A stretch of DNA of 64,000 nt from the sequence record MN850576.1, one strand, 5' to 3'. This DNA is from Escherichia phage ime. Under the pieces are notes generated by a model that did not search any database, had not been told where the DNA came from, and saw only the letters and a program-made list of their open reading frames with translations. The position numbers and the translations under genes are program-made. Of the stretch, positions 1,051-64,000 are shown piece after piece; within the stretch, counting starts at the first letter, position 1, and the number at the start of each line of letters is the position of its first letter.

Positions 1051-2607
1051 TTAATTTTCCATGTTGGATATGGAATTATCTCTGGTTGATGATATCTTAG
1101 AAGTGCCGTTGCCAGTGGATCCTGCAGCCATTCCATCACCAGCTCTACTGATGTCCTGGCCCAAGAGCTTCATCAGCTCTTCCTGATCCATGTCCTCGTC
1201 AAATCTTTCATCAAACCCGCCTACTTCAAGAATCTTATTAATTACTGCAGGAGTTTTTGGCAAGTAACCTACAGCACCGATCCTCTGGACAAACTTGGAG
1301 AAGCTCTCCATATCCACTTCTTCAATCAGACCAGGTTTCAGTTTAGGCATATCATCATCTTCAAGGATGATACCATTCAATGCCAGAAGCTGTGGAATAA
1401 GATCCTTATTGAAGGCTTCAGTGATAATATCTATATCACGCTGAACAAAATGACCATGGATAGACTGTTTTGACTCAGACAGAGAGAAGGATCCAACGTT
1501 ATCGTTACCGAGGTTAATAAAGCCAGCACCGAAACGGTCAAGAATCGCCTTCTTACGGGCATCAATCAAATCTTTAGTGGAATACTGCTTACCCATACCG
1601 TCAACCCCCTTCAGGGTCATGGAGTAAAGCTCTTTACCAGACTTATCTCTATCAGACGGAAGTATAAAGAAACTTTGCTCACCACTATGGGCGTTTGCTG
1701 CGTCAAGCATAAGATCTGCAACCATTCTCCCTTCCATTGAATTCGGGTCAATGCTGGCCTTGTTCAAAATATTGGAAGGAATTTTCAGCTCAAGTACACC
1801 ACCAAGGTCTTTGGAACAGCCAACAACCTCAAGGTTTTCAATCAGAACTTTCTCACGGAAAGATCTGTAGCAACCTATCATCGGTGACACACCTGCAGGG
1901 TTAGATTCTGTTCCTGACAGGGTCATGAGCATAAGCTTTTTAGCAGGGATGAAAATTTCAGGCTCATTAAAGCCTTTTGAAGGCATTGCAGCAAGAGGTC
2001 CAGCCCAGCGTGCATTCTGAGTGTTTAGAAATGCATTAGGTGACTGATAAATACCTGTCAGTGTTCTACTATTCTTGTCAAAAACAAACGGCTCTGATCT
2101 GGACAGGCTGGCCTGAGGTCGGAATGCAATTTTATCAATAAGAAGCATCCCGGCATATTTACCTTCTTTCTCTCTGCGGTATACTTTCTCAAACAGTGAA
2201 AAACCATACTCGTTAAAGGTAGCTGCGCTTCTTGCAATATCTCGAAGAGTTTGTTGGTTTGCCAAATTACGCAAAGAATACTCTATAAGCTCGGCAGCTT
2301 TCTTAGAGTCTTCACTTTTAACATTATAAAGGATCTTAAAATCATTGAATGCTTTCGTGATGAAAACATATTTTGTATCTAAGGCAGTAGCAACTGTGGA
2401 ATCACATTTCATAGTCTCCACTGTGGCAATCAGCTGAGGCCAACGCAATTCCTCAACCATCATAGATTGCGATTCTGCCATAATTTGGGAAAGTGCGCCA
2501 GAACCGATCTCACTCATACGAACATTATGAGTTGGTGCGCCTGCGTTCCCAGATTTATTCACAGTTTTGGCTGTGGCGTTGTGTTTCCTGCGGTTCTTTT
2601 TGGACAC
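1051..2607 (-). CDS. putative portal protein
   Basis: 518-aa ORF immediately downstream and co-directional with large terminase; size and position typical of portal; no motif-level confirmation. Confidence 0.5.
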   Translation of the reverse strand: MSKKNRRKHNATAKTVNKSGNAGAPTHNVRMSEIGSGALSQIMAESQSMMVEELRWPQLIATVETMKCDSTVATALDTKYVFITKAFNDFKILYNVKSEDSKKAAELIEYSLRNLANQQTLRDIARSAATFNEYGFSLFEKVYRREKEGKYAGMLLIDKIAFRPQASLSRSEPFVFDKNSRTLTGIYQSPNAFLNTQNARWAGPLAAMPSKGFNEPEIFIPAKKLMLMTLSGTESNPAGVSPMIGCYRSFREKVLIENLEVVGCSKDLGGVLELKIPSNILNKASIDPNSMEGRMVADLMLDAANAHSGEQSFFILPSDRDKSGKELYSMTLKGVDGMGKQYSTKDLIDARKKAILDRFGAGFINLGNDNVGSFSLSESKQSIHGHFVQRDIDIITEAFNKDLIPQLLALNGIILEDDDMPKLKPGLIEEVDMESFSKFVQRIGAVGYLPKTPAVINKILEVGGFDERFDEDMDQEELMKLLGQDISRAGDGMAAGSTGNGTSKISSTRDNSISNMEN

Positions 2608-2707
2608 AAGCTTTACCCCTCAAAACAGTATAACAAAATAGCCCTCGTCAGAGGGCTAGTATCTCCAATTACTTTATTGTACCACATCTAATTAAGATTG
2701 GCAACAC

Positions 2708-4255
2708 TTAGATAAAACGCTTGAACATAGAAGGTGATGAGATTGATGGAATCACACAAGGAAGTGCTACCTCCTCTTTCTCCAGGAAATTAATCGCAGA
2801 AGCTACACAGTCGGCCCAGTCGTCTTTTCTGTTAAATGTTGATCTTTCCCCGTTGAATTTTTCAAGTTCAGTCAGAAATGCTTCCAGAGTATCAGGATGG
2901 AAACTGGATTTTACAATCCTCACCATTCCTTGTTGGGCAAGATTGGCAAAAGGTGAGAACCTTGTCAGTTTAGACTTGTTGGAAGGCATTGGGTCTTCTT
3001 CAACCCTGAACCCTTCGGCAAGCAAGGATCTGGAGGAGGTTAAGAACTCACTCTTACCTGCCTGCCCTGGGTCCACAGAGAAGACGATTATGCAATCATC
3101 ACCATCGAACTGCGCCTGTTTCCTGATGATCACATCTCGTTCACCAGCCTTTTTACAGAACTTGCCTTCCAGACCTGTGGAATACCTCCCGTCATCCACG
3201 TTCTCAGGACAATAATCACCGGACAGGTAATAAAAGCCGTCGCTATCTTTACTTACCTTAACACTGGCAGTAAAGTCAGGAAATTTATTACCGGAAGTTC
3301 TCTCGGTTCCTGCCTTATCCCATGCCCTGCAAGATACTGACCCAAGAGGTACTCTATCGGCATCACGAAGGAAAGATCTTTGAAAATAGTTTGCACCCTC
3401 AGGCTTTGCAAACCAGTTACCATGGAGAAGCTGAGCTTTTTCCAGCTCTGGTAGACCTTCGAGGAAAGCAAGGTATTCTGGGTTGTCTCTCAAACAGACA
3501 GGATTATCGAATATTGTTGCGCCTATGAACGAGAATGACAACGGTCTTGGCTTGATCTCTACGCCAAGTCCGTTAACCGTGGTGTATTTCTCTATCAACT
3601 CTTCTTTAGAGTCTCCCCAGATAAATTCACCGTCGCGTCGGATAAAATATCTTTTCTTACCGCATTTCTCCGGATCTGGATACCCTTCATCGTCCAACCA
3701 CCATCTAACCAGTTTGGCAAGCATGTGTTCTGAATCGGGGTTACAGCTGATAACCATTCTTGATGGATACTTTGACTGAGATCGCAGACGAGACATCAGA
3801 TAGTCTATCTGCTCCCATTCGAACTGCGTGCCCTCATCGAAGCAAACCATGGTGTACTCAAGCCCCTGATGGTTAAGCTTATCTTGTACATACTCCATAT
3901 GGCAGTATTTTACAACAGCTCCCTTTTTGCTTCTATCCCACTTACCAGTGTTCGGATCAAACCGTGGAAAAATGAACTTATGATCCTTCTCTCTGAACTT
4001 TGGCTTAATGTTTTCAGGCAGATCACTGTAAATAGCTACTGCTTTAGGCCATAGTCCACCCTCACCTTCCAACTGTGGGGTTGTTCTTCGGAACATAACC
4101 ACAGAGCTGTGGGGGTCATCAATAATTTTAAGTGGCATCAACTGCAAGAGGAACGACTTGCCAGACCCTGCGGCACCGCCGATTACCAAAATATCTGCAT
4201 CGTTTTCTAGGATCATCTTCTGCTTTTCAGAACACGGTCCGTAAATCTTAGACAT
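2708..4255 (-). CDS. terL: terminase large subunit
   Basis: 515 aa; N-terminal Walker A ILVIGGAAGSGKSF; size and two-domain architecture typical of phage TerL. Confidence 0.8.
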   Translation of the reverse strand: MSKIYGPCSEKQKMILENDADILVIGGAAGSGKSFLLQLMPLKIIDDPHSSVVMFRRTTPQLEGEGGLWPKAVAIYSDLPENIKPKFREKDHKFIFPRFDPNTGKWDRSKKGAVVKYCHMEYVQDKLNHQGLEYTMVCFDEGTQFEWEQIDYLMSRLRSQSKYPSRMVISCNPDSEHMLAKLVRWWLDDEGYPDPEKCGKKRYFIRRDGEFIWGDSKEELIEKYTTVNGLGVEIKPRPLSFSFIGATIFDNPVCLRDNPEYLAFLEGLPELEKAQLLHGNWFAKPEGANYFQRSFLRDADRVPLGSVSCRAWDKAGTERTSGNKFPDFTASVKVSKDSDGFYYLSGDYCPENVDDGRYSTGLEGKFCKKAGERDVIIRKQAQFDGDDCIIVFSVDPGQAGKSEFLTSSRSLLAEGFRVEEDPMPSNKSKLTRFSPFANLAQQGMVRIVKSSFHPDTLEAFLTELEKFNGERSTFNRKDDWADCVASAINFLEKEEVALPCVIPSISSPSMFKRFI

Positions 4256-5358: not shown

Positions 5359-5435
5359 TGGTCTCCACGGAGTGATTCGAACACTCGACCTCCTGATCCC
5401 AAATCAGGCGCTCTACCAAGCTGAGCTACGCGGAG
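5359..5435 (-). tRNA. tRNA-Pro (anticodon TGG)
   Basis: Manual cloverleaf: C1-G72 acceptor (typical of Pro), D-arm TAGCTCAGCTTGGTAGAGC, anticodon stem CCTGA/TCAGG with loop TTTGGGA, T-loop TTCGAAT, encoded CCA. Confidence 0.85.
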
Positions 5436-5446
5436 TATTTATTATT

Positions 5447-5521
5447 TGGTGGCCCTGGGTGGAATTGAACCACCGTCTGGCGATTATGAGTCGCTTGCTT
5501 GAACCTTCCAGCTACAGGGCC
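5447..5521 (-). tRNA. tRNA-Met (anticodon CAT; elongator-type or Ile-CAT not distinguishable)
   Basis: Manual fold: acceptor GGCCCTG/CAGGGCC, anticodon loop CTCATAA, T-arm GGTGG-TTCAATT-CCACC, encoded CCA; G1-C72 pair argues against initiator. Confidence 0.75.
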
Positions 5522-5522
5522 A

Positions 5523-5598
5523 TGGTGCTGATGGCAGGACTTGAACCTGCAACCTATTGATTACAAATCAATTGCACTACCAATTGTGCTACATCAGC
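5523..5598 (-). tRNA. tRNA-Thr (anticodon TGT)
   Basis: Manual fold: acceptor GCTGATG/CATCAGC, D-stem GCAC/GTGC, anticodon stem ATTGA/TCAAT loop TTTGTAA, T-arm GCAGG-TTCAAGT-CCTGC, CCA. Confidence 0.85.
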
Positions 5599-5603
5599 AA
5601 AAA

Positions 5604-5702
5604 GGTGCTAGGTGATGGAATCGAACCACCTATGTATTCAACGACTACCTCGTCTATTTTCAGGATTAAAAATCCTCGCCCTTGCCAAAGGGCTTACCTA
5701 GC
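5604..5702 (-). tRNA. aberrant tRNA-like element (Lys-TTT-like anticodon arm; about 25-nt insertion in variable region); possible pseudo-tRNA
   Basis: Perfect 7-bp acceptor GCTAGGT/ACCTAGC, D-arm GCCC-TTTGGCAA-GGGC, T-arm GGTGG-TTCGATT-CCATC, anticodon arm AGGA-TTTTTAA-TCCT; about 30 nt between anticodon and T arms; CC but no terminal A encoded. Confidence 0.4.
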
Positions 5703-5800
5703 TCAGTATGTTGACCATGTTGCTAGTCGGCGATGACGACTGTAACATTTGATAATCCGGTTCTGCTTCCGGCTTTCGCTTAATTACAAGGTCAACAATA

Positions 5801-5891
5801 TGGCTGAGGGTAATGGAATCGAACCATCATCAAGTCATCCTCAACGGGACGGTTTTCAAGACCGCTTGAGCACCATTGCTCCCTACCCTCA
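5801..5891 (-). tRNA. tRNA-Ser (anticodon TGA), type II with long variable arm
   Basis: Manual fold: acceptor TGAGGGT/ACCCTCA, anticodon stem GCGGT/ACCGT loop CTTGAAA, long variable arm, T-loop TTCGATT, encoded CCA; 91 nt. Confidence 0.8.
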
Positions 5892-6005
5892 TTTATAAAC
5901 AATACTGATAATGACACTGATTTTCGAGCAGTTAGTGACTAGTATAAACGACGATAAATATCAATGCCATTATCTGTATGATTTATGCATTTAAAACTAT
6001 AAATT

Positions 6006-6092
6006 TGGTGGGGAGTGGTGGAGTCGAACCACCCGAGTCGCAATGACAATAGATTTACAGTCTACACCGCTACCCCTACGGGATAACTCCCC
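6006..6092 (-). tRNA. tRNA-Tyr (anticodon GTA), type II
   Basis: Anticodon arm GTAGA-CTGTAAA-TCTAT, variable arm about 15 nt, T-arm GGTGG-TTCGACT-CCACC, acceptor GGGGAGT/ACTCCCC, CCA; resembles bacterial tRNA-Tyr layout. Confidence 0.8.
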
Positions 6093-6096
6093 AATT

Positions 6097-6171
6097 TGGC
6101 ACCCCGTACTGGACTCGAACCAGTGTCAACGGCTTAGAAGGCCGCTGCTTTATCCACTAAGCTAACAGGGC
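6097..6171 (-). tRNA. tRNA-Arg (anticodon TCT)
   Basis: Acceptor GCCCTGT/ACGGGGT (2 G-U pairs), D-stem GCTT/AAGC, anticodon stem GCGGC/GCCGT loop CTTCTAA, T-arm ACTGG-TTCGAGT-CCAGT, CCA. Confidence 0.8.
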
Positions 6172-8711: not shown

Positions 8712-9062
8712 CTAACCAGTTGTTGACATCCGAATAACTTCTTCTGGTGGCAAAACTTTGGAAAATGTGCATCTTTTACCTCTCCCTTGTGTGGATGTCT
8801 CAACCACTCCTGCACATTCTAAAGTTTTAACGCACGCTGCTGCTTTTGTTTTCTTTATCCCAACATCTGCTGCAATTTTCCTTGTGCTTGGTGTGAAGCG
8901 TGAATTTCCTCCAAGCTTATACCAGTTATGCAGGTAGCAGTATACGATCTTGTCATACAAGTCAAGAACAACAACCTCCCCAGTTGTGTCATTCAAAACT
9001 TTTGACATAGATAGTATTTCAAGGGGGACTTTAAGATATAGCAGCTTATCCCCATCTTTCAT
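8712..9062 (-). CDS. putative helix-turn-helix DNA-binding protein
   Basis: 116 aa; C-terminal segment STRKIAADVGIKKTKAAACVKTLECAGVV resembles a winged-HTH recognition region; adjacent to palindrome array. Confidence 0.45.
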   Translation of the reverse strand: MKDGDKLLYLKVPLEILSMSKVLNDTTGEVVVLDLYDKIVYCYLHNWYKLGGNSRFTPSTRKIAADVGIKKTKAAACVKTLECAGVVETSTQGRGKRCTFSKVLPPEEVIRMSTTG

Positions 9063-9109
9063 ATCTCCTGATTCTCCTTGTGTGGCAATTTTCTTTAAAA
9101 TAGCAGGGA

Positions 9110-9664
9110 TTACTCCCTGCTGTCAATATCAAAACTCATTGCAATACGGTATGCCTCTTCTAATGGTAAGAGTCTCCCCCACACATCCCAACCGACATCA
9201 AGCTGCCTGCCAAACAACTGTTGTGTGGTTCCGTGAGCATGACCGAACAGTTGGACTGATCCGTGAGGCTTTCTGTTCCACTTTGCAAACTGGTAATGGC
9301 TCATACAGATCAAATTCTTGTTGTGGCGAAGCTCGTAATAATCTACAACCTCATGACCGAACTCTTTCATAATTCTGACAGTCGTCCTTGTGTCATGGTT
9401 GCCACGAACAAGAATAATATGTCCGTTCAACATATTTAGAATATCTGGAAGCAAGTTGTTGATATTCTTATCATTAGTGCACGCAATATCTCCCAAGTGG
9501 AACACAGTGTCTGCAGGTGACACAACAGAGTTCCACTCGGCGATGATTCCCGCATTCATACTGTCAAGATTGTGATCATACTGAGATCTGTGTTTTTGAC
9601 ATGAATCAAACTCCATGACCCGCTGGTGGAGAAAGTGTGTGTCGCTTGTTACAAAGTATTTCAT
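9110..9664 (-). CDS. calcineurin-like metallophosphoesterase
   Basis: Starts MKYFVTSDTHF; motifs GDIACTNDKN and GNHD typical of metallophosphoesterases; ORF track start trimmed to Met at 9662-9664 with GAGGA SD; directly follows kinase stop. Confidence 0.7.
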   Translation of the reverse strand: MKYFVTSDTHFLHQRVMEFDSCQKHRSQYDHNLDSMNAGIIAEWNSVVSPADTVFHLGDIACTNDKNINNLLPDILNMLNGHIILVRGNHDTRTTVRIMKEFGHEVVDYYELRHNKNLICMSHYQFAKWNRKPHGSVQLFGHAHGTTQQLFGRQLDVGWDVWGRLLPLEEAYRIAMSFDIDSRE

Positions 9665-9671
9665 ACATTCC

Positions 9672-10139
9672 TCATTTAAGTTTAATGCAGTTTTTAAGCT
9701 GGCGTTCCATACGATCCACAACCTTGTCTGGAACATCATGAATGCTTTTATTACCGTGGCGGTTTTCAACCACGATCACGGTATAACTATACCCATGACT
9801 GATTGCCATGTCAACATATTCCTGCACATGTTTTTCTTTTGTAAACGTATTACTTACCACGATACGGTCGTATCCCATACGCATCATATCTTCTACGTTA
9901 TCTTTGCACCATTTTGCTGCGAGTGTTACTTTACTTGCATCCCAGTTGTAATTGCCGTCATCGTCATACCAGAACATGTCGTTCTCAAAATGTGGATACA
10001 GACCCTCTAAAGATAGCGCATTTGCCAGTGTTGATTTGCCAGACCCTGGTAGACCACGCACGATATATAGCATTTTAGACATAGTGACCCTCCGTTTTAA
10101 TTTCAACGGTAGTATACCTAACTGTTTTGTTAATTTCAA
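9672..10139 (-). CDS. P-loop kinase, polynucleotide-kinase-like
   Basis: 155 aa; Walker A GLPGSGKSTLA near N-terminus as in T4 Pnk kinase domain; followed by phosphoesterase gene. Confidence 0.55.
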   Translation of the reverse strand: MKLTKQLGILPLKLKRRVTMSKMLYIVRGLPGSGKSTLANALSLEGLYPHFENDMFWYDDDGNYNWDASKVTLAAKWCKDNVEDMMRMGYDRIVVSNTFTKEKHVQEYVDMAISHGYSYTVIVVENRHGNKSIHDVPDKVVDRMERQLKNCIKLK

Positions 10140-10203
10140 GTGTTGACACTAGGTTATTTGTGTGGCAGGATAGACTGACAAAATGACAAATGAGGAACGT
10201 ATA

Positions 10204-11118
10204 ATGAAGTATTTTAATGCAGACGACCTGGTTGACAAAGGTCTTGTAACCAGTAGGTATTACCCAGATCTCGGGTTAAAGATCTATAAATATGCTAGAA
10301 AAGTATTTTACAACAATTTATGGCATTTGTCCCCTCGTTTACTGGAGTGCCGAGGCATTGTTGTAGGTAATGAAGGAAATGTTGTGGCATGGCCCTTCAC
10401 AAAAGTGTTTAACTTGGGAGAAAACTCCACCAACCTGCCTGACAATAAGCTTGTGACTGCGGTAGAGAAAAAGAACGGATTCCTTGGTGTGGTATCATCT
10501 CATAAAGGTGACCTATTGTTCTCAACAACCGGGTCTCTTGATTCTCCATATTGTAACCTTGCAAAGGAAACCATCCAAGAGCAATGTGGTAATTTAGATC
10601 TTATCAAGAAGGTTATGGGCAATGAAAACATGACATTCATGTTTGAAATTTGTCACCCTTCAGATCCGCATATTGTTCAAGAAGACCATGGCGCATATTT
10701 GATAGGTTGCAGATATAATGATTCTGGAATAATGCTACCAGAAGCAGCTTTAGATGGGATTGCCAAATACCTTGGTGCAAAACGTCCTCACACTGTGCGT
10801 GAAATCCCGTTCAGCTATGCAAAAGAATTAGCCGCAGAAACAAGGGGCGAAGGGTATATGATCCGTAAGCCTTACTACCCTTATGACCTGCAGCTGAAGA
10901 TCAAGTCTCCATACTACCTGGCACGGAAGGCCGTAATGAGGGGTAAAGCTTGGAAGATTTGGGATGATGATATCTTTAAACGTGTTGACGAAGAGTTTTA
11001 CGGCATGGTAAACTTCATTCGTAACAATTACACAGAAGATGTGTGGAACTGCCTCCTGGAGCAGGAACGCCGTGAGATACTTGATTACTATTTCCACAAC
11101 GAGAACTATATGCAATGA
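10204..11118 (+). CDS. putative RNA ligase-like nucleotidyltransferase
   Basis: Covalent nucleotidyltransferase motifs: motif I KKNGF (KxNG), motif IV-like EGYMIRK, motif V-like LKIK; start set at Met 10204 with GAGGA SD (ORF track start 10183). Confidence 0.5.
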   Translation: MKYFNADDLVDKGLVTSRYYPDLGLKIYKYARKVFYNNLWHLSPRLLECRGIVVGNEGNVVAWPFTKVFNLGENSTNLPDNKLVTAVEKKNGFLGVVSSHKGDLLFSTTGSLDSPYCNLAKETIQEQCGNLDLIKKVMGNENMTFMFEICHPSDPHIVQEDHGAYLIGCRYNDSGIMLPEAALDGIAKYLGAKRPHTVREIPFSYAKELAAETRGEGYMIRKPYYPYDLQLKIKSPYYLARKAVMRGKAWKIWDDDIFKRVDEEFYGMVNFIRNNYTEDVWNCLLEQERREILDYYFHNENYMQ

Positions 11119-11465
11119 AGAAGTTGATTGTGTGGCTGGATGACTTGAGAGATCCGTCAAATTATGGGCTCCCCGACGCTATTTGGCTAAAGAATTCCTC
11201 CGAGTTTATAGATTTTATTAACGATAGGGGAAAGCTCTACAGACGCGTTTCTGAGTGGCACATGGACAACGACCTTGGAGAGTTGTTCGAAGGGTACGAT
11301 TGCCTATCTATGTTGGAGGAAAAATTTGTATTTGGTAAGCCCCCTGTAGTTGACAACGTGAAGATTTTCGTGCATACTTCTAACCCATCAGCGGCTCGTA
11401 AATTCATGCTTGCAGCTGACTCGTTTAAAAAGTTTGGAATAGAGATTAAACAAAACATCTACTGA
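11115..11465 (+). CDS. hypothetical protein (inside RNA-repair/Sir2 cluster)
   Basis: 116-aa ORF with ATGA overlap to upstream gene; no domain recognised. Confidence 0.45.
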   Translation: MKKLIVWLDDLRDPSNYGLPDAIWLKNSSEFIDFINDRGKLYRRVSEWHMDNDLGELFEGYDCLSMLEEKFVFGKPPVVDNVKIFVHTSNPSAARKFMLAADSFKKFGIEIKQNIY

Positions 11466-11473
11466 GGACACTT

Positions 11474-12235
11474 ATGCGACGACTGATTATTATCTCCGGT
11501 GCTGGTTTGAGCGCTGAATCTGGTATTCCCACTTTCCGATCTGGTAGCACTGCAATGTGGGAGAATTTCAGCATCGATGAGGTGTGCAACATCCACACCT
11601 TTGCCAAGAACTACTACAAGGTGCATGACTTTTACAATGCACGTCGTGTAGCTCTAGGCGGTGTTGAGCCTAACCTTGCACATCTTCGGATCGCTGAGTG
11701 GTATTCCCGCTGGTCTGGTCGTGTGATCAACCTTACCACCAATGTAGATGATTTGCTGGAGCGTGCTGGTGTAAAACATGAAGATATTTTACATGTTCAC
11801 GGGTATTTGCCAGAAATAGTCTATGAGGACGATGAAGGAAGTGACGTCATTAAGGACATTGGATACTCTGAGGTAGATGCAGGAAAGTATACCTGGGTTA
11901 AACCTAATGTGGTGTTCTTCGGAGAAGTAGCTCCGAAGTATACAGACATGTATGACCTGTTGACTTCTCTTACAAGCAATGATATGGTTATCCTTGTAGG
12001 GTGTTCCAACACAGTTATCAATTTTAACTGGGAGCTATTCCCTGCCTGCAATAAGGGCACCAAACTGCTGATCGTTAACAAATACGACTCACAGCATCTA
12101 GAGGAGAATGGCATTTCACGTAGTGATATTTACCAGTACGAGGATCGCGGCATCCCGGTTTGGTTTAACGGGGCGGTTGACGCTTTCTCTGATAAAACAT
12201 TCATTGAGACCGTAGAAAACTTTATGGAACTTTAA
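11474..12235 (+). CDS. Sir2-family (sirtuin-like) NAD-binding protein lacking the zinc-ribbon module
   Basis: N-terminal GAGLSAESGIPTFRSG, TTNVDDLLERAG and HVHG motifs match sirtuin NAD-binding/catalytic signatures; no CxxC pairs anywhere in the protein. Confidence 0.8.
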   Translation: MRRLIIISGAGLSAESGIPTFRSGSTAMWENFSIDEVCNIHTFAKNYYKVHDFYNARRVALGGVEPNLAHLRIAEWYSRWSGRVINLTTNVDDLLERAGVKHEDILHVHGYLPEIVYEDDEGSDVIKDIGYSEVDAGKYTWVKPNVVFFGEVAPKYTDMYDLLTSLTSNDMVILVGCSNTVINFNWELFPACNKGTKLLIVNKYDSQHLEENGISRSDIYQYEDRGIPVWFNGAVDAFSDKTFIETVENFMEL

Positions 12236-12248
12236 AAGGAGACCTTTA

Positions 12249-12962
12249 ATGCTGAATACTAAACTGATCGACAACCTGGAAAAACTGTCTCAGCCTGAAA
12301 ACTACCTTTGGTCTGCCAACTGGGTGGAAAACTGGAACCGTGTGGCAGCTAAAGTGAAAAAATCATACACACCATTCGAATTACAGCTTAGCTTCATTGA
12401 GGAAGAGTTCAATGAGGTTTTGGAAGAGCTGGAGAAAGGTGATGGTGGAGATCACCTGCTAAAAGAGGCCTGCGATCTTCACGTTGTCACAAGTTATGCC
12501 GCTTATCTTGTTAATGATAATCACGAAAAGTGGTCAAACCTGTTTGATAATCCACGAGGTCTTAAGTTCAAGATCGGTGAGTTCTATGATACACTGATCG
12601 CTGCGAAAAACACATCCAAGCAAAGAGCGTCAGCTTACCGCTTAGCGGAGTTGTCAACAGCTTTGCTGTTCCAGCTTCGCGGCGATGTGTGTGGGATGAT
12701 GCGGAAGGTTCTCAAATCTAATGACAGCAAGTTTGCACGGATCAACCATCTACGATATTCTCACGGTGCCAGTGCAGATATGTCTACTGAATTGCTCATA
12801 GAGTTAGAGATTGAAGATCTTGAGCGTCGTTTTGGTGGTCGCTACGAAGGTTTCGTTGCTAAAGAGGAGTTCTACAACGGTAATAAAGTTATTATATTCC
12901 TTGACAGTAAAGGTAAGATTATGAAGCCTTCGAGCTTCAAGGATGTAACAGAGTATATTTAA
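12249..12962 (+). CDS. hypothetical protein, possible MazG-like nucleotide pyrophosphohydrolase domain
   Basis: EEEFNEVLEEL ... KEACD segment resembles MazG EExxE...ExxD metal-binding pattern; weak. Confidence 0.3.
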   Translation: MLNTKLIDNLEKLSQPENYLWSANWVENWNRVAAKVKKSYTPFELQLSFIEEEFNEVLEELEKGDGGDHLLKEACDLHVVTSYAAYLVNDNHEKWSNLFDNPRGLKFKIGEFYDTLIAAKNTSKQRASAYRLAELSTALLFQLRGDVCGMMRKVLKSNDSKFARINHLRYSHGASADMSTELLIELEIEDLERRFGGRYEGFVAKEEFYNGNKVIIFLDSKGKIMKPSSFKDVTEYI

Positions 12963-47201: not shown

Positions 47202-47417
47202 ATGAAGATAGAAATATTTGGTGGAGCTGACAACACTCGTGGCCTGATTTACCTTGAATTCGATGAATCATACCTGCCAGAGGTGTTAAATATGGACTCT
47301 GTTGCTGATGCTTTGGGAGTAAGTCCTAAAGATCTCTACTCTGGTGCTGAGATTGATGGTTGGGAGGAGACCATGAACATTGATTTCAGTGAAGTAGGTG
47401 ATGAACCACTGGACTGA
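47202..47417 (+). CDS. small acidic protein (family A-like N-terminus MKIEIFGG)
   Basis: 71-aa ORF after GGAGA. Confidence 0.4.
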   Translation: MKIEIFGGADNTRGLIYLEFDESYLPEVLNMDSVADALGVSPKDLYSGAEIDGWEETMNIDFSEVGDEPLD

Positions 47418-47546
47418 CACACAATTAGCTGCCAGGCTAAAGTGCTGGAAGCGCACCTATAACACATCTTTCAACTAAATTTCCTACCACCACAATCACT
47501 TACCTCCCACACATGACTGTTTGCTTGTTTAGTGAGCAGTCATGCC

Positions 47547-47574
47547 TTGACATTCTTGCCTATCCTGATAAAAT
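47547..47574 (+). promoter_or_regulatory. sigma70-like promoter (TTGACA-N16-TAAAAT) facing an ORF-free region
   Basis: -35 47547-47552, -10 47569-47574; no ORF of 60 aa or more downstream on plus strand for over 2 kb. Confidence 0.45.
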
Positions 47575-47579
47575 TAAGT

Positions 47580-47860
47580 TCTTCTCTTTTCTTTTACCGA
47601 GTAATTCGGGTTTTCTGTTCTCTTCGGTTTGAAGGGGTATGGAGATACACCTGAGTGAACAGGGTGAACAACCGAACCATTGGCTATGGCATTAGCATGG
47701 CGAAGCGGACGGGTGACGAAAGAGGGGCCGGAGGACACCAGTCACTGCCATATGGTATATGGGTGATAACCTGAAGAGTCTGAATAAGTGTTTAAGTACC
47801 AGTCAGAGGAAAAGGTGAATGGTAGCCGAAGGGGGAGGGGGGTTTCTTGTATCTTTAATT
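47580..47860 (+). ncRNA. candidate non-coding transcript (unclassified)
   Basis: Promoter-proximal ORF-free stretch with locally elevated GC and G-rich tract (GAAGGGGGAGGGGGG) followed by TTTCTTGTATCTTT. Confidence 0.2.
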
Positions 47861-48912
47861 TGTATATTATGTATACACTTGTAAACCAATCTCATCTGAA
47901 TCTGTTTACCACACAAAGCGGATAGAGACAAATATCACCTATTAAACTTGAATTATTTATAGAAAATACCACAACACCACTTAAGTCTTTGATTTTACAC
48001 ACAAATCCTACAGATATTCAACCTCCATATTTAACATACTTGTAACATATTCCATACTCTACCTGTCTGATCAATCTACCCAACCACATCCTTCATATTT
48101 TCCCTGTCTGTACCACCCCTGCCCCGCCGGGAGTCCCGTCATATCTGGCTTTCCAGTAAATAGCACACCCACAAATATCATTGCCTGAAGAGGGTTTCAT
48201 CCCATAATACATGCCTTACCTGAAGAGCGCTTCATACACCACGTAAATTTTTTAATTGACCTGCAATTTTCCCGTCATGACCCCCCCCCTGCCCCGCCGG
48301 AGAGGTTGGCTTTTCCCACACAGACCTGAAGAGTCAGCCAGAAATATCTGAACAGGTCCAGTTCTGCCTTGTCATGAGCCGTAGCGACTGGAGTGCTGCC
48401 AGGCGGACGGAATGGGAATACTTCTCATTCTTATAATAATTCTCAAATATCGAGGCAGTGAGGCAAATTAATAGGTGAGGCCGTTCACACAGTGGCACAA
48501 CATTTGCAATCTATTTTGTGAGGGTGAATGAGAATACCTATCATTGTGAGAACCTTTATCATTACGGGCAATTTAACATAATACCCATTATGCGCACCAC
48601 TGGCGATACATACAGGGATTGATACCATGAGTTACAGTTTACGCATATAACAATCATATTTCTTACTATTTGTGTGGGATATAGTTAGCAACCAATAGAT
48701 TAGATATTGACCTACAGACTTCCAACCGTCTAGACGTCTAAACGCCCACACACCAAGGGTTATACATACATTACTGAATGTAAACAGGGCCGCAAAAATG
48801 CTACCATACCAGTTTGTAAATTTTTCATGCAGCACTTGACAAAGAGGAGAAAAACTTGTCTGACATAATGTGACCTAACTGACACAACATGACACTTTTA
48901 CACACCTATTAG

Positions 48913-48984
48913 TTTACACACTGGATTGTTTACATTCCTGATTGTTCACATGCTAACCATTTACATGATTGACTGTTTACACAC
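48913..48984. repeat. iteron-like direct repeats (five TTTACA/TTCACA copies, loosely DnaA-box-like)
   Basis: GTTTACACA 48913-48921, TGTTTACAT 48927-48935, TTGTTCACA 48942-48950, ATTTACAT 48959-48966, TGTTTACACA 48975-48984; further copies near 49395-49455. Confidence 0.55.
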
Positions 48985-48993
48985 CGATAATCA

Positions 48994-49251
48994 GCCATGC
49001 CATTCGTTTGCATGACAATAATTATACATGACAATAATCGCACTGATTATAATTAGCATGACATAATATAAAAGCAGGGCAACTATTAGCAGATCTATAG
49101 TTGCCTTGCTTGTTATGTCATGATTAACTAAATACAAGGCAACTATGATCTGATTAATAGTTTGCAGACAAACTATCACGGGGGTGATGGTTACTGCTTT
49201 TATATTATGTCGCGACTCCGTCGCGCCATGCCATTCGTTTGCATAGTTGCC
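48994..49251. repeat. composite repeat: 20-bp direct repeat, 18-20 bp inverted repeat, four GGCAACTAT/ATAGTTGCC copies
   Basis: GCCATGCCATTCGTTTGCAT at 48994-49013 and 49225-49244; ATGACATAATATAAAAGCAG 49058-49077 vs its reverse complement 49194-49211; GGCAACTAT at 49078, 49138 and ATAGTTGCC at 49097, 49243. Confidence 0.7.
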
Positions 49252-49861
49252 TTATTGTTACAGATAAAATAATTGTATTGTTAATTATTTCTTATCTTTC
49301 TATTAGTCATCTAATGATTTCAGTTAATATAGTAACGTACAGTAAACATTAGACGACTAAAGATTTCTCTGCTTATGGTAACCTAACGTGACAATTCCAG
49401 ACTGTTTACGAAAAATGTTGACACCTGGGCCGATTTATGTTATGCAGTTTACACGAATAATTATTTTATGCAGGTATTGACTATTCCGTTATTCTATGGT
49501 TGGAATAAATGCTTAGCAGGCTATAGAATGGCGAGCGTACGTAAATTCTGAGATCTGGCGGCTATAGTTATACTCGATTTTTCACGTAGAAAACGCTTTT
49601 GTAGCTATGTAAGTGTATGACTTATAAAGATTTTTAGTTGTTGACAAGATATTGGAGATGTGCATCAGATTAAATTTTGTGCAATAGCTACATTACGTGC
49701 ACTTTTGGAAGAAAAAACGTGTAAAAATGGCCCTGCTACCACACAATGAAAGATTATGCAATAGTTATTTTATATGTATATTTGTACAGTGTGTGGGATT
49801 AATGGCTAGTCAATTATTCCACTTGCCAGGTAGGGCCGTTTATGGTAGGAGAAGAGCAGAC

Positions 49862-49886
49862 AAAAAGAAAGGGGCCTTTAAGCCCC
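49862..49886 (-). terminator. rho-independent terminator (minus strand)
   Basis: On minus strand GGGGC...GCCCC hairpin followed by TTTCTTTTTG; downstream of gene 49907-50326. Confidence 0.55.
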
Positions 49887-49906
49887 TTGATAATTCAGTT
49901 AAGAAA

Positions 49907-50326
49907 TTATAATGATTCGTATATTTCAAAAATCCGATTTGCCAGGTCGTTACGGTAGCGGAATTTTTCATCACGCTTGATCATTAAATCCTTATAGCCG
50001 TACTCTTTAAGCACTTCATTAACTTTATGGCGGCATACCTGCATATTATCTTGAGCGTCACCAATAAACTTGTTGCTGTGGTGCATTGCTTTAATTTCTT
50101 CTTCCAGGACCAGGGCAACTACCCGGACCGGATCAAGCTGGTAGGCGGTAACATCCATGCGGCATTGTAGACGGCTTTTAACGTCTGCCACCGGATATAC
50201 TGCAACCTCTTCCCCGTCAACATTAACAATAACTAGTTTACCATCGATTTCGAATCCTTTCGCCGCCGGACCGTGACAAAAAGCGTTATCAAAGCTATAT
50301 GCCGGATTATCAGATTTAATGTTCAT
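49907..50326 (-). CDS. hypothetical protein
   Basis: 139-aa ORF; minus-strand promoter TTGACA-N17-TATATT and SD AAGAGG upstream. Confidence 0.5.
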   Translation of the reverse strand: MNIKSDNPAYSFDNAFCHGPAAKGFEIDGKLVIVNVDGEEVAVYPVADVKSRLQCRMDVTAYQLDPVRVVALVLEEEIKAMHHSNKFIGDAQDNMQVCRHKVNEVLKEYGYKDLMIKRDEKFRYRNDLANRIFEIYESL

Positions 50327-61569: not shown

Positions 61570-61902
61570 TTAAGGTAACCAGTAAACAATCTCGCCTTTC
61601 AGCTTCATGTCGTTTCCAACATAAATTTCCCAGCCATCCATCTTAGCAACTGTAGGCCCAAAGTCATCCGCACCCCTTACCTCTTTCCAGGCTCCGTAGT
61701 CAGGTTGCCAGATATAGAATCCACCTTCTTTGTCCCATGCTCCGTACACTACGTTTAACAGGTTTCCCATTGCAACAATGGTGGGCCGTGGGAATAATAC
61801 ATCTACAGATGCGCCACAATTTCGGGTATCTTTTAAGTTGCAATCCCAAAAGATGTCTGCCAGTGTGGCGGCGATAGCTTTACGTCTTTCCAATGTTACC
61901 AT
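61570..61902 (-). CDS. hypothetical protein
   Basis: 110-aa ORF. Confidence 0.4.
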   Translation of the reverse strand: MVTLERRKAIAATLADIFWDCNLKDTRNCGASVDVLFPRPTIVAMGNLLNVVYGAWDKEGGFYIWQPDYGAWKEVRGADDFGPTVAKMDGWEIYVGNDMKLKGEIVYWLP

Positions 61903-61912
61903 GGCACGATAC

Positions 61913-62104
61913 TCACTTGTTGTTAATAAGTTCTAAAACTTTCTGTCTTACTTTGTCAAGGTCTGTTGATTCAAAAACTGTGCGATATCCCCAACTTTGC
62001 CCATAGGAGTGACTGCAATCCCCGTAGCACCATTGCTCAATTTGATAGTATTCAAGGAACGGGTGCTGTCTAACTATGATACCATCCCGGTTAAAAATTA
62101 CCAT
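61913..62104 (-). CDS. hypothetical protein
   Basis: 63-aa ORF. Confidence 0.35.
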   Translation of the reverse strand: MVIFNRDGIIVRQHPFLEYYQIEQWCYGDCSHSYGQSWGYRTVFESTDLDKVRQKVLELINNK

Positions 62105-62167
62105 AATACATCGCTCTCTGTTAGTTTATGCGTATATTATACACTGCAGTTTTCAGATGTCAACCTC

Positions 62168-62419
62168 TTACAGATTGCTCCAGTACAATCGGCATTTACA
62201 TTTTTGGCAATGAGGTTCTTTTATGTAATAACCGTCAGTCTTTGGAACACTTTTTGGTGCAGTTTTAATATTGTACCTGGTAAAACATCGGAAGCAGGTT
62301 ACCTCTCCGATCTGTTGATCGTTAATCCACTCGCCAGAGTGAAGCTCTTTCTTGTTTCTCATAATTCTCTTCAAAATCCTCTGCAATCTTATACCAAAAT
62401 CTCCAGCCAGAAAGCACAC
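62168..62419 (-). CDS. zinc-ribbon protein
   Basis: CFRCF ... CQKCKC Cys pairs. Confidence 0.4.
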   Translation of the reverse strand: MCFLAGDFGIRLQRILKRIMRNKKELHSGEWINDQQIGEVTCFRCFTRYNIKTAPKSVPKTDGYYIKEPHCQKCKCRLYWSNL

Positions 62420-62613
62420 GGGAACACTTTGAGGATTGAATCTTTACTTGGCTCGGAAGTTCTTTTTCCGTATGGTAGGTAGAAATACCCTCCTGCAGAT
62501 TCGAATATAGCTCCTTCGGTTGTATCTACCACAGCAAGAATTAAGATTTTAGTCTCCACAGTGCTCCCCTCTCTTAGTTGTTGTGGTGACTATACCATCT
62601 CAAAAACCAGCTG

Positions 62614-63111
62614 TCAACACTTTTTGTACTCCACCACGATAATATCCATATCAAAAGTGGCAAGGTTAATAACGTCCTCTACGTGCTCCCACTTCAAACC
62701 GCCTATGCCGCACCCGATCTTAGGGATGTAGAATGGTAAAGTCGATCCACTGAATACCTCATTGACTAGCTCAAAGCCTTTCAGGATTGAGAAATATTCA
62801 GCATTAGGTCCTGGGTAGAACTGAGTATACAGATTGATTCCGTAGACAATACCTCTCGGAGATAAGTGCTCCCATCGGGAGAACGCACCCAGTTTACTTA
62901 GGCAACCATGTCTGGTCTCTTTGTCAGCTGCCAATGCTTGAGGGAACTCACGGGTAATCTGTTTTGCTATCCCCTTGCCCATTGTGTGGAAGCAGTTACA
63001 ACCGTGGATCAGGTGACCAGCACCACTCTTAAAAAGGGAGATTAAATCTCCCTCTACAGTATCAATAATCACGGTATGCCAGCTCCTCTTCCACAATTTC
63101 AAAAAACTCAT
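62614..63111 (-). CDS. macro-domain protein (ADP-ribose binding/processing)
   Basis: GHLIHGCNCFHTMGKGIAKQI matches macro-domain NAAN-x6-GGG-[IV]A motif (C for A); C-terminal GCGIGG glycine-rich loop; start set at Met 63109-63111. Confidence 0.55.
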   Translation of the reverse strand: MSFLKLWKRSWHTVIIDTVEGDLISLFKSGAGHLIHGCNCFHTMGKGIAKQITREFPQALAADKETRHGCLSKLGAFSRWEHLSPRGIVYGINLYTQFYPGPNAEYFSILKGFELVNEVFSGSTLPFYIPKIGCGIGGLKWEHVEDVINLATFDMDIIVVEYKKC

Positions 63112-63487
63112 CCCAACCTTGTGGCATATTTGAGTTGCCGAAGTGGCTTTCATAGTAAAGGTTCTCACCACTTGGGAGATAGAAATCTGTTACCTCGTAG
63201 AGTCCACAATCGTCGCACTCACCTTCTTCGAACTTGGCCTCAACCTTAATACCTAGGAAGGTGAAAAGTTTATGGATATCTTCAGTTTCGAACTCCCAGC
63301 AGATATTGTTTTCCGCATCGGTGTAGAACTGGATCAGCAGACCATTATCCAGTTTACCAAAATATTCTGTGAAGTAACTACCTTCCCAGAAATCTTTATG
63401 ACAAATAATATCCATGCGCTTGCCCATGATAAAGGTGTGGGCGTTTTGGGCATCGTCACGAATCAGTTTTGGCATTTCATAGATCAT
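63062..63487 (-). CDS. hypothetical acidic protein
   Basis: 141-aa ORF. Confidence 0.4.
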   Translation of the reverse strand: MIYEMPKLIRDDAQNAHTFIMGKRMDIICHKDFWEGSYFTEYFGKLDNGLLIQFYTDAENNICWEFETEDIHKLFTFLGIKVEAKFEEGECDDCGLYEVTDFYLPSGENLYYESHFGNSNMPQGWDEFFEIVEEELAYRDY

Positions 63488-63555
63488 CTTAGTTCTCCGG
63501 GTTCAACAGGTGGTGGTGCTACAGGAAGATCATAAAACATAGCTATCACAGTCTC

Positions 63556-63753
63556 TTACACAGGAATTGCTTCAAACAGGCCGTTATCTATACCGTCCTT
63601 CAGATAGAGATTATATTCTATGTCGGTATCTGTATAAAGGGCAGCATCCAGCATTCTATCTGTGAGTCCATCCATTGGGTGGAGAAACCACCACCCACGC
63701 CAGTCAAAGTAACAGCCTGGTGCATCTTCTCTTACACGGATTCGATAAATCAT
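63556..63753 (-). CDS. hypothetical protein
   Basis: 65-aa ORF. Confidence 0.35.
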   Translation of the reverse strand: MIYRIRVREDAPGCYFDWRGWWFLHPMDGLTDRMLDAALYTDTDIEYNLYLKDGIDNGLFEAIPV

Positions 63754-64000
63754 GGGCAGTGGCCTCCTGTTAGTTATACATCCCAGTTTTCTTCGTTCAT
63801 CACGTCCTCCCGTTCTATGAAGTTATAATTGCACACCTTTCCACCTGTGTCAACAGAAAACTTCAACAAATTCTTCCACAGTTTTAATGTCGTGTGAAAA
63901 AGGTTTACGGCTATAACGGGCAATAGCACTATCAACCACCGCCCGGTACTCCAAATCTTCAGAATATTTCATGAAGCATTGCAGCGTCTCTGGGCAGATA

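Follow-up and report, generated by a model that had tools for sequence, protein, structure and literature searches.

Our analysis of a 64,000-nucleotide stretch of Escherichia phage ime DNA (MN850576.1; hereafter the window) identified the product of a minus-strand gene at 62614..63072 as a small macrodomain, an ordinary member of a known family. The protein is a stand-alone Vequintavirus orthologue of T4 Tk.4 (AdfM) and probably strips ADP-ribose off phage DNA as an orphan anti-DarTG2 hydrolase, the most likely function because this relative protects T4 from DarTG2.

Gene extent, translation start and genomic context

The source phage is a Vequintavirus of the rV5/JES2013 type, and orthologues of the gene are ORF194 of JES2013, bas54_0092 of Bas54 (81% identity between the proteins) and tk.4 of T4. 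An earlier, sequence-only reading had drawn the gene at 62614-63111; the stop end of this span was right, but translation probably begins 39 nt inside its other end, at a GTG codon. The features concerned are:

62614..63072, minus strand: macrodomain gene (ORF list and sequence; a 459-nt gene likewise in GenBank annotations)
63070..63072, minus strand: GTG start codon of the macrodomain gene (homologue N-termini; conservation in 4 vequintaviruses)
63083..63088, minus strand: Shine-Dalgarno-like GAGGAG, 10 nt 5' of the GTG (putative function)

The product comprises 152 aa plus stop, the stop codon ending at 62614 in the ORF list. The N-termini of all 52 aligned homologues (‘MII..’) coincide with the GTG at 63072, the N-terminus of T4 Tk.4 also aligns there, and the codon is kept in the window, JES2013, typing phage 4 and Bas54; the GAGGAG, read from the sequence, is common to four vequintaviruses. 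The 39 nt 5' of the GTG are 3'-terminal sequence of the preceding gene (63062..63487), whose final 11 nt the macrodomain gene overlaps with its start; within those 39 nt, substitutions are radical when read in the macrodomain frame (L>W, W>Q). From this pattern, together with the N-termini of homologues and the annotations already in place, we rejected both the ATG at 63111, which is probably not the macrodomain start, and the GTG at 63171 that opens the longest ORF.

The leftward early-like block in which the gene had been placed is plausible, as sigma-70-like promoters are enriched in 61800..64000 (11 found vs 4.1 +/- 1.8 expected), and the minus strand carries 10 of these 11. The macrodomain gene is flanked by small phage ORFs that either lack a Pfam match or have a phage zinc-binding domain, and it does not adjoin replication genes in this genome; the homologues of three metagenomic phage contigs lie inside DnaB/primase/AAA_24 replication modules. 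No darT was seen next to a macrodomain homologue in six contexts examined, and no second macro gene was found in the window. A tblastn search of the window for a NADAR (AdfN) partner with T4 30.3 gave a best E of 2.5, this search being too insensitive for the distinct Bas60-type NADAR. An Rfam scan of the window returned five tRNAs only.

Macro fold and family membership

The protein had been called a macro domain from its sequence, and profile, fold and motif conservation agree on this assignment. Pfam Macro (PF01661) matched at E 2.7e-6 with 27.8 bits, the gathering score being 22, a precomputed PF01661 match is present on many homologues, and PHROG 335 matched at E 4e-58. The three-layer alpha/beta/alpha macro fold was confirmed by an AlphaFold2 model (pLDDT 96.7, pTM 0.91) and its matches to PDB structures: Foldseek returned 161 at E<=0.001, those listed being macrodomains or designed enzymes of the same fold. 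Human TARG1 was the best match (E 2.6e-10, TM 0.78-0.85) and was accompanied at the top by yeast Poa1p, DarG, Bacteroides BT1257 and Streptomyces coelicolor SCO6735, which like TARG1 belong to the ALC1-like class. The best 19 matches came from the ALC1-like/TARG1-like class, while viral and MacroD-type macrodomains appeared at 1e-6 or weaker.

Sequence comparison led to the same class, to which all significant PDB sequence matches belonged except TTHA0132 (2dx6), the weakest one. A family profile matched M. tuberculosis DarG at 3e-17, BT1257 at 1e-16, and SCO6735 and TARG1 at 1e-15 each; because these scores are almost equal (61-66 bits), we rejected assignment to one sub-clade by score and regard the family as its own clade inside the ALC1-like class. 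The only matches in PADLOC and NCBIfam were to their DarG models (9e-14 and 1.6e-12), the former spanning positions 4-142 of 329 and the latter (antitoxin_DarG) positions 3-141 of 338 with 47 bits against a cut-off of 250. Membership of DarG2 was rejected, the protein having no catalytic Lys, 152 aa against about 340 aa in two domains, and no darT neighbour. The gene already bears a macro domain protein annotation; records also name it ‘phosphatase’, ‘A1pp motif’ or ‘O-acetyl-ADP-ribose deacetylase’, and we attribute the phosphatase/A1pp labels to its resemblance to Poa1p.

Active-site motifs and their conservation

Two motifs on which the macro-domain call had been based are present: GCNCFHTMGKGIA at residues 24-36 (about 62965..63003) and the glycine-rich C-terminal loop at residues 117-128. 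With them the protein matches both the macro consensus N-x6-G-x-G-[IV]-A and the Gly-rich phosphate loop. The parts of the predicted ADP-ribose pocket are:

62965..63006, minus strand: loop 1, residues 23-36, HGCNCFHTMGKGIA (H23, G24, N26, G34-I-A36; family conservation)
62821..62835, minus strand: NLYTQ motif, residues 80-84 (Gln84 at the catalytic position; family conservation)
62689..62724, minus strand: glycine-rich phosphate-binding loop, residues 117-128, PKIGCGIGGLKW (family conservation, alignment)

Across 53 family sequences, G24, N26, G34 and A36 of loop 1, N80 and Q84 of the NLYTQ motif, and P117 and G120 of the phosphate loop are each invariant (53/53), and H23, Y82 and G122 (52/53), G125 (51/53) and T83 (50/53) are nearly so. 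In alignments, loop 1 has the counterparts H24, N27 and GKG in SCO6735 and N22 in DarG, the phosphate loop corresponds to PRIGCGLAGG in SCO6735 and PRIGCGLDRL in TARG1, and Q84 falls on Lys80 of DarG, Lys84 of TARG1 and Gln85 of both SCO6735 and BT1257. H23, N26, Q84, G120 and G122 correspond to SCO6735 H24, N27, Q85, G126 and G128.

Kinship with T4 Tk.4 and resistance to DarTG2

T4 Tk.4 and the macrodomain protein are 39% identical over their full length (E 4e-41) and are reciprocal best matches, each being the sole significant match in the other genome. Both are single-domain proteins of about 152-155 aa with identical HGCNCFHTMG, NLYTQ and P-x-IG-x-GIG motifs, and both genes lie in leftward small-gene blocks and overlap the upstream gene. 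The neighbours themselves differ, the upstream gene here not being homologous to T4 vs; conservation of the vs-tk.4 pair was rejected (63062..63487 against T4 Vs, E 35, with no Pfam family).

The Tk.4 phenotype, like the DarT2 target and the biochemistry of SCO6735 and DarG, is taken from the literature. Tk.4 was named AdfM (anti-DarT factor Macrodomain) in the HIDEN-SEQ preprint, where tk.4 alone among T4 genes came out as significantly conditionally essential on a DarTG2 host and its clean knockout made T4 sensitive to DarTG2, so that resistance of T4 to the DNA ADP-ribosylating DarTG2 requires Tk.4 on evidence that is genetic only (10.1101/2025.11.20.689424). This evidence agrees with the suggestion, made from the sequence, that ADP-ribose marks could be taken off by a phage macro domain. 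Both genes are also dispensable on laboratory hosts, with transposon insertions at 45 of 46 TA sites in tk.4 and at 31/31 in bas54_0092, which a literature supplement scored as ‘Non-essential’; such tolerance of insertions in bas54_0092 fits the expectation for an anti-defence gene.

The anti-DarTG2 phenotype is known for T4 alone, and our search of the literature found no Vequintavirus orthologue tested against DarTG2. With an identity of 39%, substrate specificity could differ from that of Tk.4, and since about 60% of residues differ, the DarT2 variants or substrates covered may differ too. DarTG2 strongly restricts T5 (PMC11825919); consistent with that restriction, whole-genome tblastn gave no macro homologue in T5-like Bas26.

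Comparison with characterised macrodomains

A biochemical model is offered by macrodomains with Gln at the catalytic position, SCO6735 (PDB 5E3B) and BT1257 (2FG1/2AFC), with which the phage protein shares Q84 (Gln85 there), the loop 1 His and Asn and the conserved phosphate-loop Gly, and which are likewise stand-alone proteins without a cognate DarT. SCO6735 is a hydrolase of thymidine-linked ADP-ribosyl DNA, and it rescues cells from DarT; mutation of N27, Q85 or G128 abolished or nearly abolished ADP-ribose removal from DarT-modified DNA, Q85A being inactive, and H24Y also lost activity, through fold disruption (PMC9411070). However, identity to the two proteins is only 24-27%, their Val/Ile25 is replaced by the invariant Gly24, and their genes are chromosomal whereas this one is phage-borne. 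Several features that the SCO6735 authors connected with activity on DNA are also lacking, which counts against a role on DNA: the mobile loop that follows the Gln, extended in SCO6735, is shorter here by 5-6 residues and contains no lysines (Lys89/Lys94 in SCO6735), the equivalent of SCO6735 Lys34 is Ala in most family members, and the protein is mildly acidic (pI 6.3 vs 9.7 for SCO6735 and 8.9 for BT1257). The same authors called two of the differing features SCO6735-specific, namely Val/Ile25 and the long basic loop with Lys89/Lys94 (PMC9411070).

The same features bear on the idea, which we consider unlikely, that the protein erases ADP-ribose from proteins (Glu/Asp-linked) or RNA, the marks being set either by competing phages or by host defence ADP-ribosyltransferases such as CmdTAC-type toxins. 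A dedicated DNA enzyme is made less likely by the near-neutral pI and by the missing SCO6735-like basic mobile loop, TARG1 is the best structural match, TARG1-class enzymes act on phosphate-linked RNA ends, and SCO6735 hydrolyses Glu-linked protein mono-ADP-ribose in addition to DNA adducts (PMC9411070). Nevertheless, the sole known phenotype of the clade is against DarTG2, which modifies DNA, and although human TARG1/OARD1 (PDB 4J5R/4J5S) has the same loop architecture including the P-R/K-IGCG motif, it is only 22-27% identical and its Lys84/Asp125 dyad for protein substrates is absent, Gln84 and Gly124 standing in its place. No ADP-ribosyltransferase gene was seen in the parts of the window examined, and nothing more than a ‘phosphatase’ label of a generic kind, or matches of DarG type, came from PHROG, PADLOC and NCBIfam. 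Macrodomains of the ALC1-like class are promiscuous: the substrates of TARG1 include protein Glu-ADPr, OAADPr and nucleic-acid ends, and that of Poa1p is ADPr-1''-phosphate. The physiological substrate is therefore not readable from sequence.

The DarG2 macrodomain (T. aquaticus 5M31/5M3E, M. tuberculosis 5M3I) and PhiKZ gp104, the chimallivirus AdfM (Cell Rep 2026, PMC13309987), share the fold and class of the phage protein and its proposed activity, the removal of DarT2's ADP-ribose from ssDNA thymidine, and DarG provides the best sequence matches in PDB, PADLOC and NCBIfam. In contrast to the invariant Gln here, both have a catalytic Lys (K80/K78); DarG further carries a DarT-binding domain at its C-terminus and is encoded next to darT, neither of which applies here, while the PhiKZ protein is only 21-24% identical and is imported into the phage nucleus. 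To our knowledge, vequintaviruses do not form a phage nucleus. The name AdfM is now common to two evolutionarily distinct phage proteins. ICP1 AdfB was considered as a phage macrodomain precedent and rejected, being a 77-aa DarT binder with no macrodomain.

The Sir2 gene and the RNA-repair cluster

A Sir2-like gene had also been recognised in the window, with the speculative idea that it might form a reversible ADP-ribosylation system with the macrodomain. The gene is real:

11474..12235, plus strand: Sir2 gene (PF02146, 95 bits)

It lies 50.4 kb from the macrodomain gene, on the opposite strand and in a different transcription block, and its neighbours encode an Rnl1-like ligase, a cREC, a polynucleotide-kinase-like kinase, a metallophosphoesterase and a MazG-like protein. 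SirTM systems are two-gene sirtuin-macrodomain systems of bacteria and actinophages; the window resembles them in holding a sirtuin and a macrodomain gene in one genome, but here the genes are non-adjacent and on opposite strands, with the sirtuin in an RNA-repair neighbourhood, and across phages the two genes occur independently. To judge co-inheritance, the complete genomes of T4 and Bas26 were searched by tblastn. In T4 the macro orthologue is present and Sir2 absent (best Sir2 match E 0.04 over 44 aa); Bas26 shows the reverse, with a Sir2 of 46% identity but without the macro gene. The two genes are therefore inherited independently. Homologues of the macrodomain occur in 2,778 phage records and those of Sir2 in 1,020, in largely different phage groups among the matches listed. 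With the distance, the RNA-repair setting and this independent inheritance, the proposed pair is not supported. The same RNA-repair cluster with its sirtuin has already been described for phage V5, where its lack of coupling to a neighbouring Macro gene was noted (Iyer et al. 2022, PMC9503650).

The strongest form of the proposed Sir2 link is a small-molecule clean-up, in which Sir2, by taking off RNA 2'-phosphates like KptA/Tpt1, would yield ADP-ribose 1''-2'' cyclic phosphate, cREC would open it to ADPr-1''-phosphate, and the macrodomain would act as a Poa1p-like phosphatase (or as an O-acetyl-ADP-ribose deacetylase); we judge this quite unlikely. In its favour, Sir2, cREC, the Rnl1-like ligase, the kinase and the phosphoesterase are all in the window, a KptA-like role has been predicted for the sirtuin clade (Iyer et al., PMC9503650), macro and Sir2 genes are both found in several large myovirus groups among the matches listed, NAMPT, Nudix and RtcB genes lie near one distant macro homologue, and the phosphatase, A1pp and deacetylase labels in records point the same way. 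Poa1p (PDB 6LFQ-6LFU), the ADP-ribose 1''-phosphate phosphatase of yeast, is moreover among the closest structures (E 1.6e-9), with a strong structural and N-terminal match in which H23, C25, N26 and C27 are numbered identically; the Foldseek rmsd of about 4 A is attributable to a long Poa1p insertion. Of the residues studied in Poa1p mutant structures, His23 recurs here as H23, while Thr30 (Thr in 37/53) takes the place of Ser30 and Gly124 that of Phe152; the invariant Gln84 falls on a Ser of Poa1p. Against the clean-up also stand the 50.4 kb, opposite strands and separate transcription blocks, the DarTG2 phenotype of a T4 orthologue that has no Sir2, the presence of Sir2 in Bas26 without a macro gene, the uncoupling of the sirtuin from a Macro gene (Iyer et al., PMC9503650) and the status of the sirtuin's KptA-like activity as a prediction. 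A related scheme, in which the macrodomain supplies the missing last step of sirtuin-centred RNA repair (Sir2 removing RNA 2'-phosphates in a KptA/Tpt1-like manner, cREC opening the cyclic phosphate and the Gln-type macrodomain dephosphorylating ADPr-1''-phosphate), is very improbable; if true, the two genes would belong to one NAD-dependent pathway despite the 50 kb between them, perhaps besides an anti-DarT2 role.

Proposed mode of action

For the removal of ADP-ribose from phage DNA, the reading that we prefer, host RNA polymerase would transcribe the macrodomain gene jointly with the upstream gene, presumably early. The protein would bind the ADP-ribose that host DarT2 puts on thymidines of single-stranded phage DNA and would hydrolyse the ribose-base bond, given the predicted activity on thymidine-linked ADP-ribosyl DNA. 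The DNA would thereby be freed for replication and transcription, which would make the protein an ‘orphan antitoxin’ against DarTG2-type defence. Catalysis may follow the lysine-independent route proposed for SCO6735, in which case Asn26 would hold the invariant Gln84, Gln84 would position the distal ribose and a bound water would do the chemistry.

The sequence-only reading had also raised the degradation of ADPR-derived defence signals, for which we found no support in the literature searched. Here the protein would be a destroyer or sponge of Thoeris messengers (1''-2'/1''-3' gcADPR, His-ADPR) or of toxic ADPR derivatives, blunting TIR/SIR2-based defence, and we hold this to be the most improbable of the functions considered. 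Low-molecular-weight ADPr derivatives have been regarded, on a distributional argument, as the main targets of phage Macro domains (Iyer et al.), and His-ADPR is bound by the Macro domains of type II Thoeris effectors. Yet no phage macrodomain cleaving or binding Thoeris signals was found in the literature searched, known anti-Thoeris proteins are unrelated sponges, and the phenotype of the T4 orthologue was DarTG2-specific in reported screens; a pure sponge is further disfavoured by the invariant catalytic-type residues.

Implications for rV5-like phages

Tk.4-type phage macrodomains are widespread, with homologues in about 2,800 phage records, and as their invariant Gln stands at the position of the catalytic Lys of DarG2 and the chimallivirus AdfM, they resemble the lysine-independent SCO6735 and are not simple DarG copies. 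The function of the family having been published in 2025-2026, nothing in this will surprise the specialist. rV5-like phages find use in the biocontrol and typing of E. coli O157, and DarTG2 is a DNA ADP-ribosylating defence of E. coli and pathogens. If our proposal for the macrodomain protein holds, rV5-like phages carry a ready-made DarTG2 countermeasure, and because DarTG2 is found in E. coli and pathogens, the gene would help to predict their host range.

Macrodomain fold and gene boundaries

The macro gene of Escherichia phage ime is predicted, from comparison of sequences, to encode a further orphan macrodomain hydrolase of the Tk.4/AdfM type. The macro-domain call of an earlier sequence-only reading was borne out by the profile search it had proposed (Pfam Macro, PF01661, 27.8 bits against a threshold of 22, the score coming mainly from the N-terminal loop), by PHROG 335 (4e-58) and by structure prediction. 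The AlphaFold2 model, computed from an alignment of 53 sequences (the protein and 52 homologues), had a mean pLDDT of 96.7 and a pTM of 0.91, with strands and helices alternating in the order of the macro fold. The first Foldseek matches in the PDB were TARG1 (E 2.6e-10, TM 0.78), Poa1p, the DarG proteins of T. aquaticus and M. tuberculosis, BT1257 and SCO6735, and these ALC1-like proteins were followed by viral X-domains and other macrodomains. PDB sequence searches agreed, whether the query was the protein itself or the family profile (profile: M. tuberculosis DarG 3e-17, BT1257 1e-16, SCO6735 1e-15, TARG1 1e-15, Poa1p 1e-13). The profile, Foldseek and PDB sequence matches therefore place the protein, a stand-alone macrodomain, in the ALC1-like (TARG1/DarG/SCO6735/Poa1p) class, and confidence in the macro fold and hydrolase function is high. 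DarG models were the only matches in PADLOC and NCBIfam; identity as a DarG antitoxin was rejected, as these models covered the macro part alone and the NCBIfam match lay far under its cut-off (47 vs 250 bits).

The minus-strand ORF with its 3' end at 62614 carries both features quoted in the sequence-only reading, the motif GCNCFHTMGKGIA and the glycine-rich loop PKIGCGIGGLKW, and has candidate starts at GTG 63171, ATG 63111 and GTG 63072. The ATG, chosen in that reading, was displaced by GTG 63072 for the following reasons. All 52 aligned homologues, and likewise T4 Tk.4, have 'MII/MIV...' N-termini at this position, and the 459-nt genes that GenBank annotates for JES2013, typing phage 4 and Bas54 have the same extent. 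Four vequintaviruses retain both this GTG and, 10 nt upstream of it, a GAGGAG. The 39 nt separating the two candidate starts (63073-63111) code for the C-terminal end of the upstream gene 63062..63487, and substitutions in them are radical when read in the macro frame.

62614..63072, minus strand: macro gene, 152 aa, overlapping its upstream neighbour by 11 nt

A scan of 61800..64000 gave 11 sigma-70-like promoter matches (4.1 ± 1.8 expected), 10 of them on the minus strand, and no terminator-like sites in the macro gene region. This pattern fits an early block transcribed by the host polymerase, consensus matches not being proof. Two examples are:

62617..62589, minus strand: sigma-70-like promoter, TTGACA-17-TATAGT with extended -10 TG, the -35 box overlapping the macro gene stop codon
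62163..62136, minus strand: sigma-70-like promoter near the macro gene, perfect TTGACA-16-TATAAT

Two genes downstream of the macro gene, a small protein (62168..62419, minus strand) matches the 'Phage zinc binding domain' PF23903 (E 2e-20). A gene-poor, AT-rich stretch of ~2.5 kb (~47417..49907; GC 0.34-0.37 at 48.5-50 kb) marks the junction of the rightward and leftward gene blocks and might hold an origin or specify non-coding RNAs. In Bas54, ~2 kb of intergenic sequence free of insertions (HIDEN-SEQ preprint, 10.1101/2025.11.20.689424) probably lies in the same place.

Over the 2.5 kb round the macro gene, identity is 96-97% with Escherichia phage JES2013, with O157 typing phage 4 and with ~115 further records, nearly all Vequintavirinae (rV5-like myoviruses of ~136-140 kb), in which the gene is labelled 'macro domain protein', 'phosphatase', 'O-acetyl-ADP-ribose deacetylase' or 'hypothetical protein'. 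The window corresponds to roughly 55.5-119.5 kb of JES2013. Sixteen GenBank 'Campylobacter phage' records (within MG065646-MG065689; host C. jejuni) are ~97% identical over the macro region, the probable explanation being mislabelled hosts or contaminant records. The terminase large subunit (2708..4255, minus strand) is a single unbroken 515-aa ORF in the window and is annotated in JES2013 and Bas54 as two pieces round a homing-endonuclease insertion; five clustered tRNA genes (Rfam) lie at 5362..6171 (minus strand), where JES2013 is annotated with four.

Active site

The 53-sequence alignment has eight invariant positions (G24, N26, G34, A36, N80, Q84, P117, G120) and nine that are nearly so (H23, C27, M31, Y82, T83, G88, I119, G122, G125). 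Gln84, within the NLYTQ motif, is placed by all the pairwise, profile and multiple alignments opposite the catalytic Lys of DarG (K80) and TARG1 (K84), and also opposite Gln85 of SCO6735 and BT1257. SCO6735 strips ADP-ribose both from ssDNA whose thymidines DarT has modified and from PARP1 modified on Glu, and it protects E. coli and S. coelicolor against DarT (PMC9411070). Replacing its Gln85 by Ala or Glu (Q85A, Q85E) abolishes activity, N27S leaves almost none, a G128 substitution is also damaging, and H24Y is dead but structurally disrupted by circular dichroism; the proposed mechanism is lysine-independent and water-mediated, Gln85, locked by Asn27, positioning the distal ribose (PMC9411070). 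The corresponding residues H23, N26, Q84, G120 and G122 are retained in the phage family, which by this alignment is 'Gln-type' like SCO6735. The family nevertheless falls outside the SCO6735 subfamily, because it has an invariant Gly24 (Val25 in SCO6735), lacks the extended Lys-bearing mobile loop and is represented here by a mildly acidic protein (pI 6.3 vs 9.7).

TARG1 and SCO6735 also act on ADP-ribosylated protein or RNA, and the phage protein might do the same; such a role is without a supporting phenotype, however, and the Lys/Asp dyad of TARG1 is absent, so that we consider it unlikely.

Orthology to T4 Tk.4

Homologues were detected by tblastn in 2,778 of 50,697 phage records, including T4-like phages, where the gene adjoins vs; in T4 this neighbour is tk.4 (RefSeq: 'phosphatase; contains A1pp phosphatase motif'). 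Tk.4 is 39% identical to the macro protein over its full length (E 4e-41) with all motifs in common, NLYTQ included, and the two are unique reciprocal best hits in whole-genome tblastn.

L004 (T4 sequence), 5426-5890: tk.4, Gln-type (NLYTQ)
L005 (PhiKZ sequence), 22518-23006: gp104, Lys-type, DarG-like

Of the T4 genes, only tk.4 emerged as significantly conditionally essential on a DarTG2-expressing host, and its clean knockout sensitised T4, whence the name adfM (HIDEN-SEQ, 10.1101/2025.11.20.689424). The Vequintavirus Bas54 was also mapped in that study; its orthologue bas54_0092, 81% identical to the window protein, carried insertions at all 31 of its TA sites and was scored as non-essential (10.1101/2025.11.20.689424).

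Relationship to the Sir2-like gene

The Sir2-like gene was confirmed (PF02146, 95 bits; PHROG 2162, 3e-109). It lies in a sirtuin-centred RNA-repair cluster (9110..12962) matching the 'Escherichia phage V5' neighbourhood described by Iyer et al. 2022 (PMC9503650, section 3.7.3):

9110..9769, minus strand: metallophosphoesterase
9672..10139, minus strand: polynucleotide-kinase-like P-loop kinase, divergently transcribed
10183..11118, plus strand: Rnl1-like RNA ligase
11115..11465, plus strand: cREC_REC ('cyclic-phosphate processing receiver') protein
11474..12235, plus strand: SIR2 (PF02146)
12249..12962, plus strand: MazG-like protein

Those authors predicted a KptA/Tpt1-like sirtuin for NAD-dependent RNA 2'-phosphate removal and stressed that it is not coupled to an adjacent Macro gene (PMC9503650). 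The Sir2-macro pairing raised in the sequence-only reading found no support as a SirTM-style toxin/antidote or writer/eraser pair, because 50.4 kb separates the two genes, which lie on opposite strands, Sir2 homologues (1,020 records) include many T5-like siphoviruses among the matches listed whereas T4-likes dominate the listed macro matches, and whole-genome checks showed the macro gene without Sir2 in T4 and the reverse in Bas26. A Poa1p-like macro protein could finish the pathway if the sirtuin makes ADP-ribose cyclic phosphate, and Poa1p His23 is indeed kept; yet the family's invariant Gln is missing from Poa1p and the distributions oppose dependence of the two genes, leaving this speculative proposal quite improbable.

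Proposed role

DarT2 marks thymidines of ssDNA TNTC motifs with ADP-ribose, blocking replication and transcription, and macrodomain hydrolases undo this (PMC13309987, PMC9411070). Of the readings considered, the one with the best support is that the Vequintavirus protein would act as an early-expressed orphan hydrolase clearing DarT2 adducts from phage DNA by lysine-independent chemistry through Gln84/Asn26. The earlier suggestion that it removes ADP-ribose marks would accord, by analogy, with the requirement for Tk.4 against DarTG2. That DarT2-modified DNA serves as the physiological substrate is rated moderately likely, somewhat better than even, because the case draws on orthology, at 39% identity, to a protein characterised by genetics and not by biochemistry, in a promiscuous class. 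Circumstantial support comes from T5, which is strongly restricted by DarTG2 (PMC11825919), the complete genome of T5-like Bas26 having no macro homologue of Tk.4, window or PhiKZ type; from the homologue's location inside DnaB/primase/AAA_24 replication modules in three of six metagenomic phage contexts; and from its always being an 'orphan', as none of the six has a DarT neighbour. Destruction of Thoeris-type ADPR signals, for which no phage-macrodomain precedent was found in the literature searched, is very unlikely. In L021, a phage-like contig (Logan SRR20820735), a distant homologue lies a few genes from a Nudix protein, NAMPT and an RtcB RNA ligase (genes at 1627..4242 and 9012..10226), the NAMPT suggesting NAD+ salvage or reconstitution.

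The chimallivirus AdfM, PhiKZ gp104, clears DarT2 marks from DNA in vitro and shields the phage (PMC13309987), but it resembles DarG, having Lys78, and its identity to the window protein is only 21-24%; Tk.4 and gp104 share only ~18% identity. The two proteins named AdfM thus represent different, evolutionarily distinct lineages, the Tk.4 clade being Gln-type and the chimallivirus protein Lys-type, and probably differ in chemistry. That the very widespread Tk.4-type clade is Gln-type like SCO6735, unlike Lys-type DarG2 and chimallivirus AdfM, may be worth reporting.
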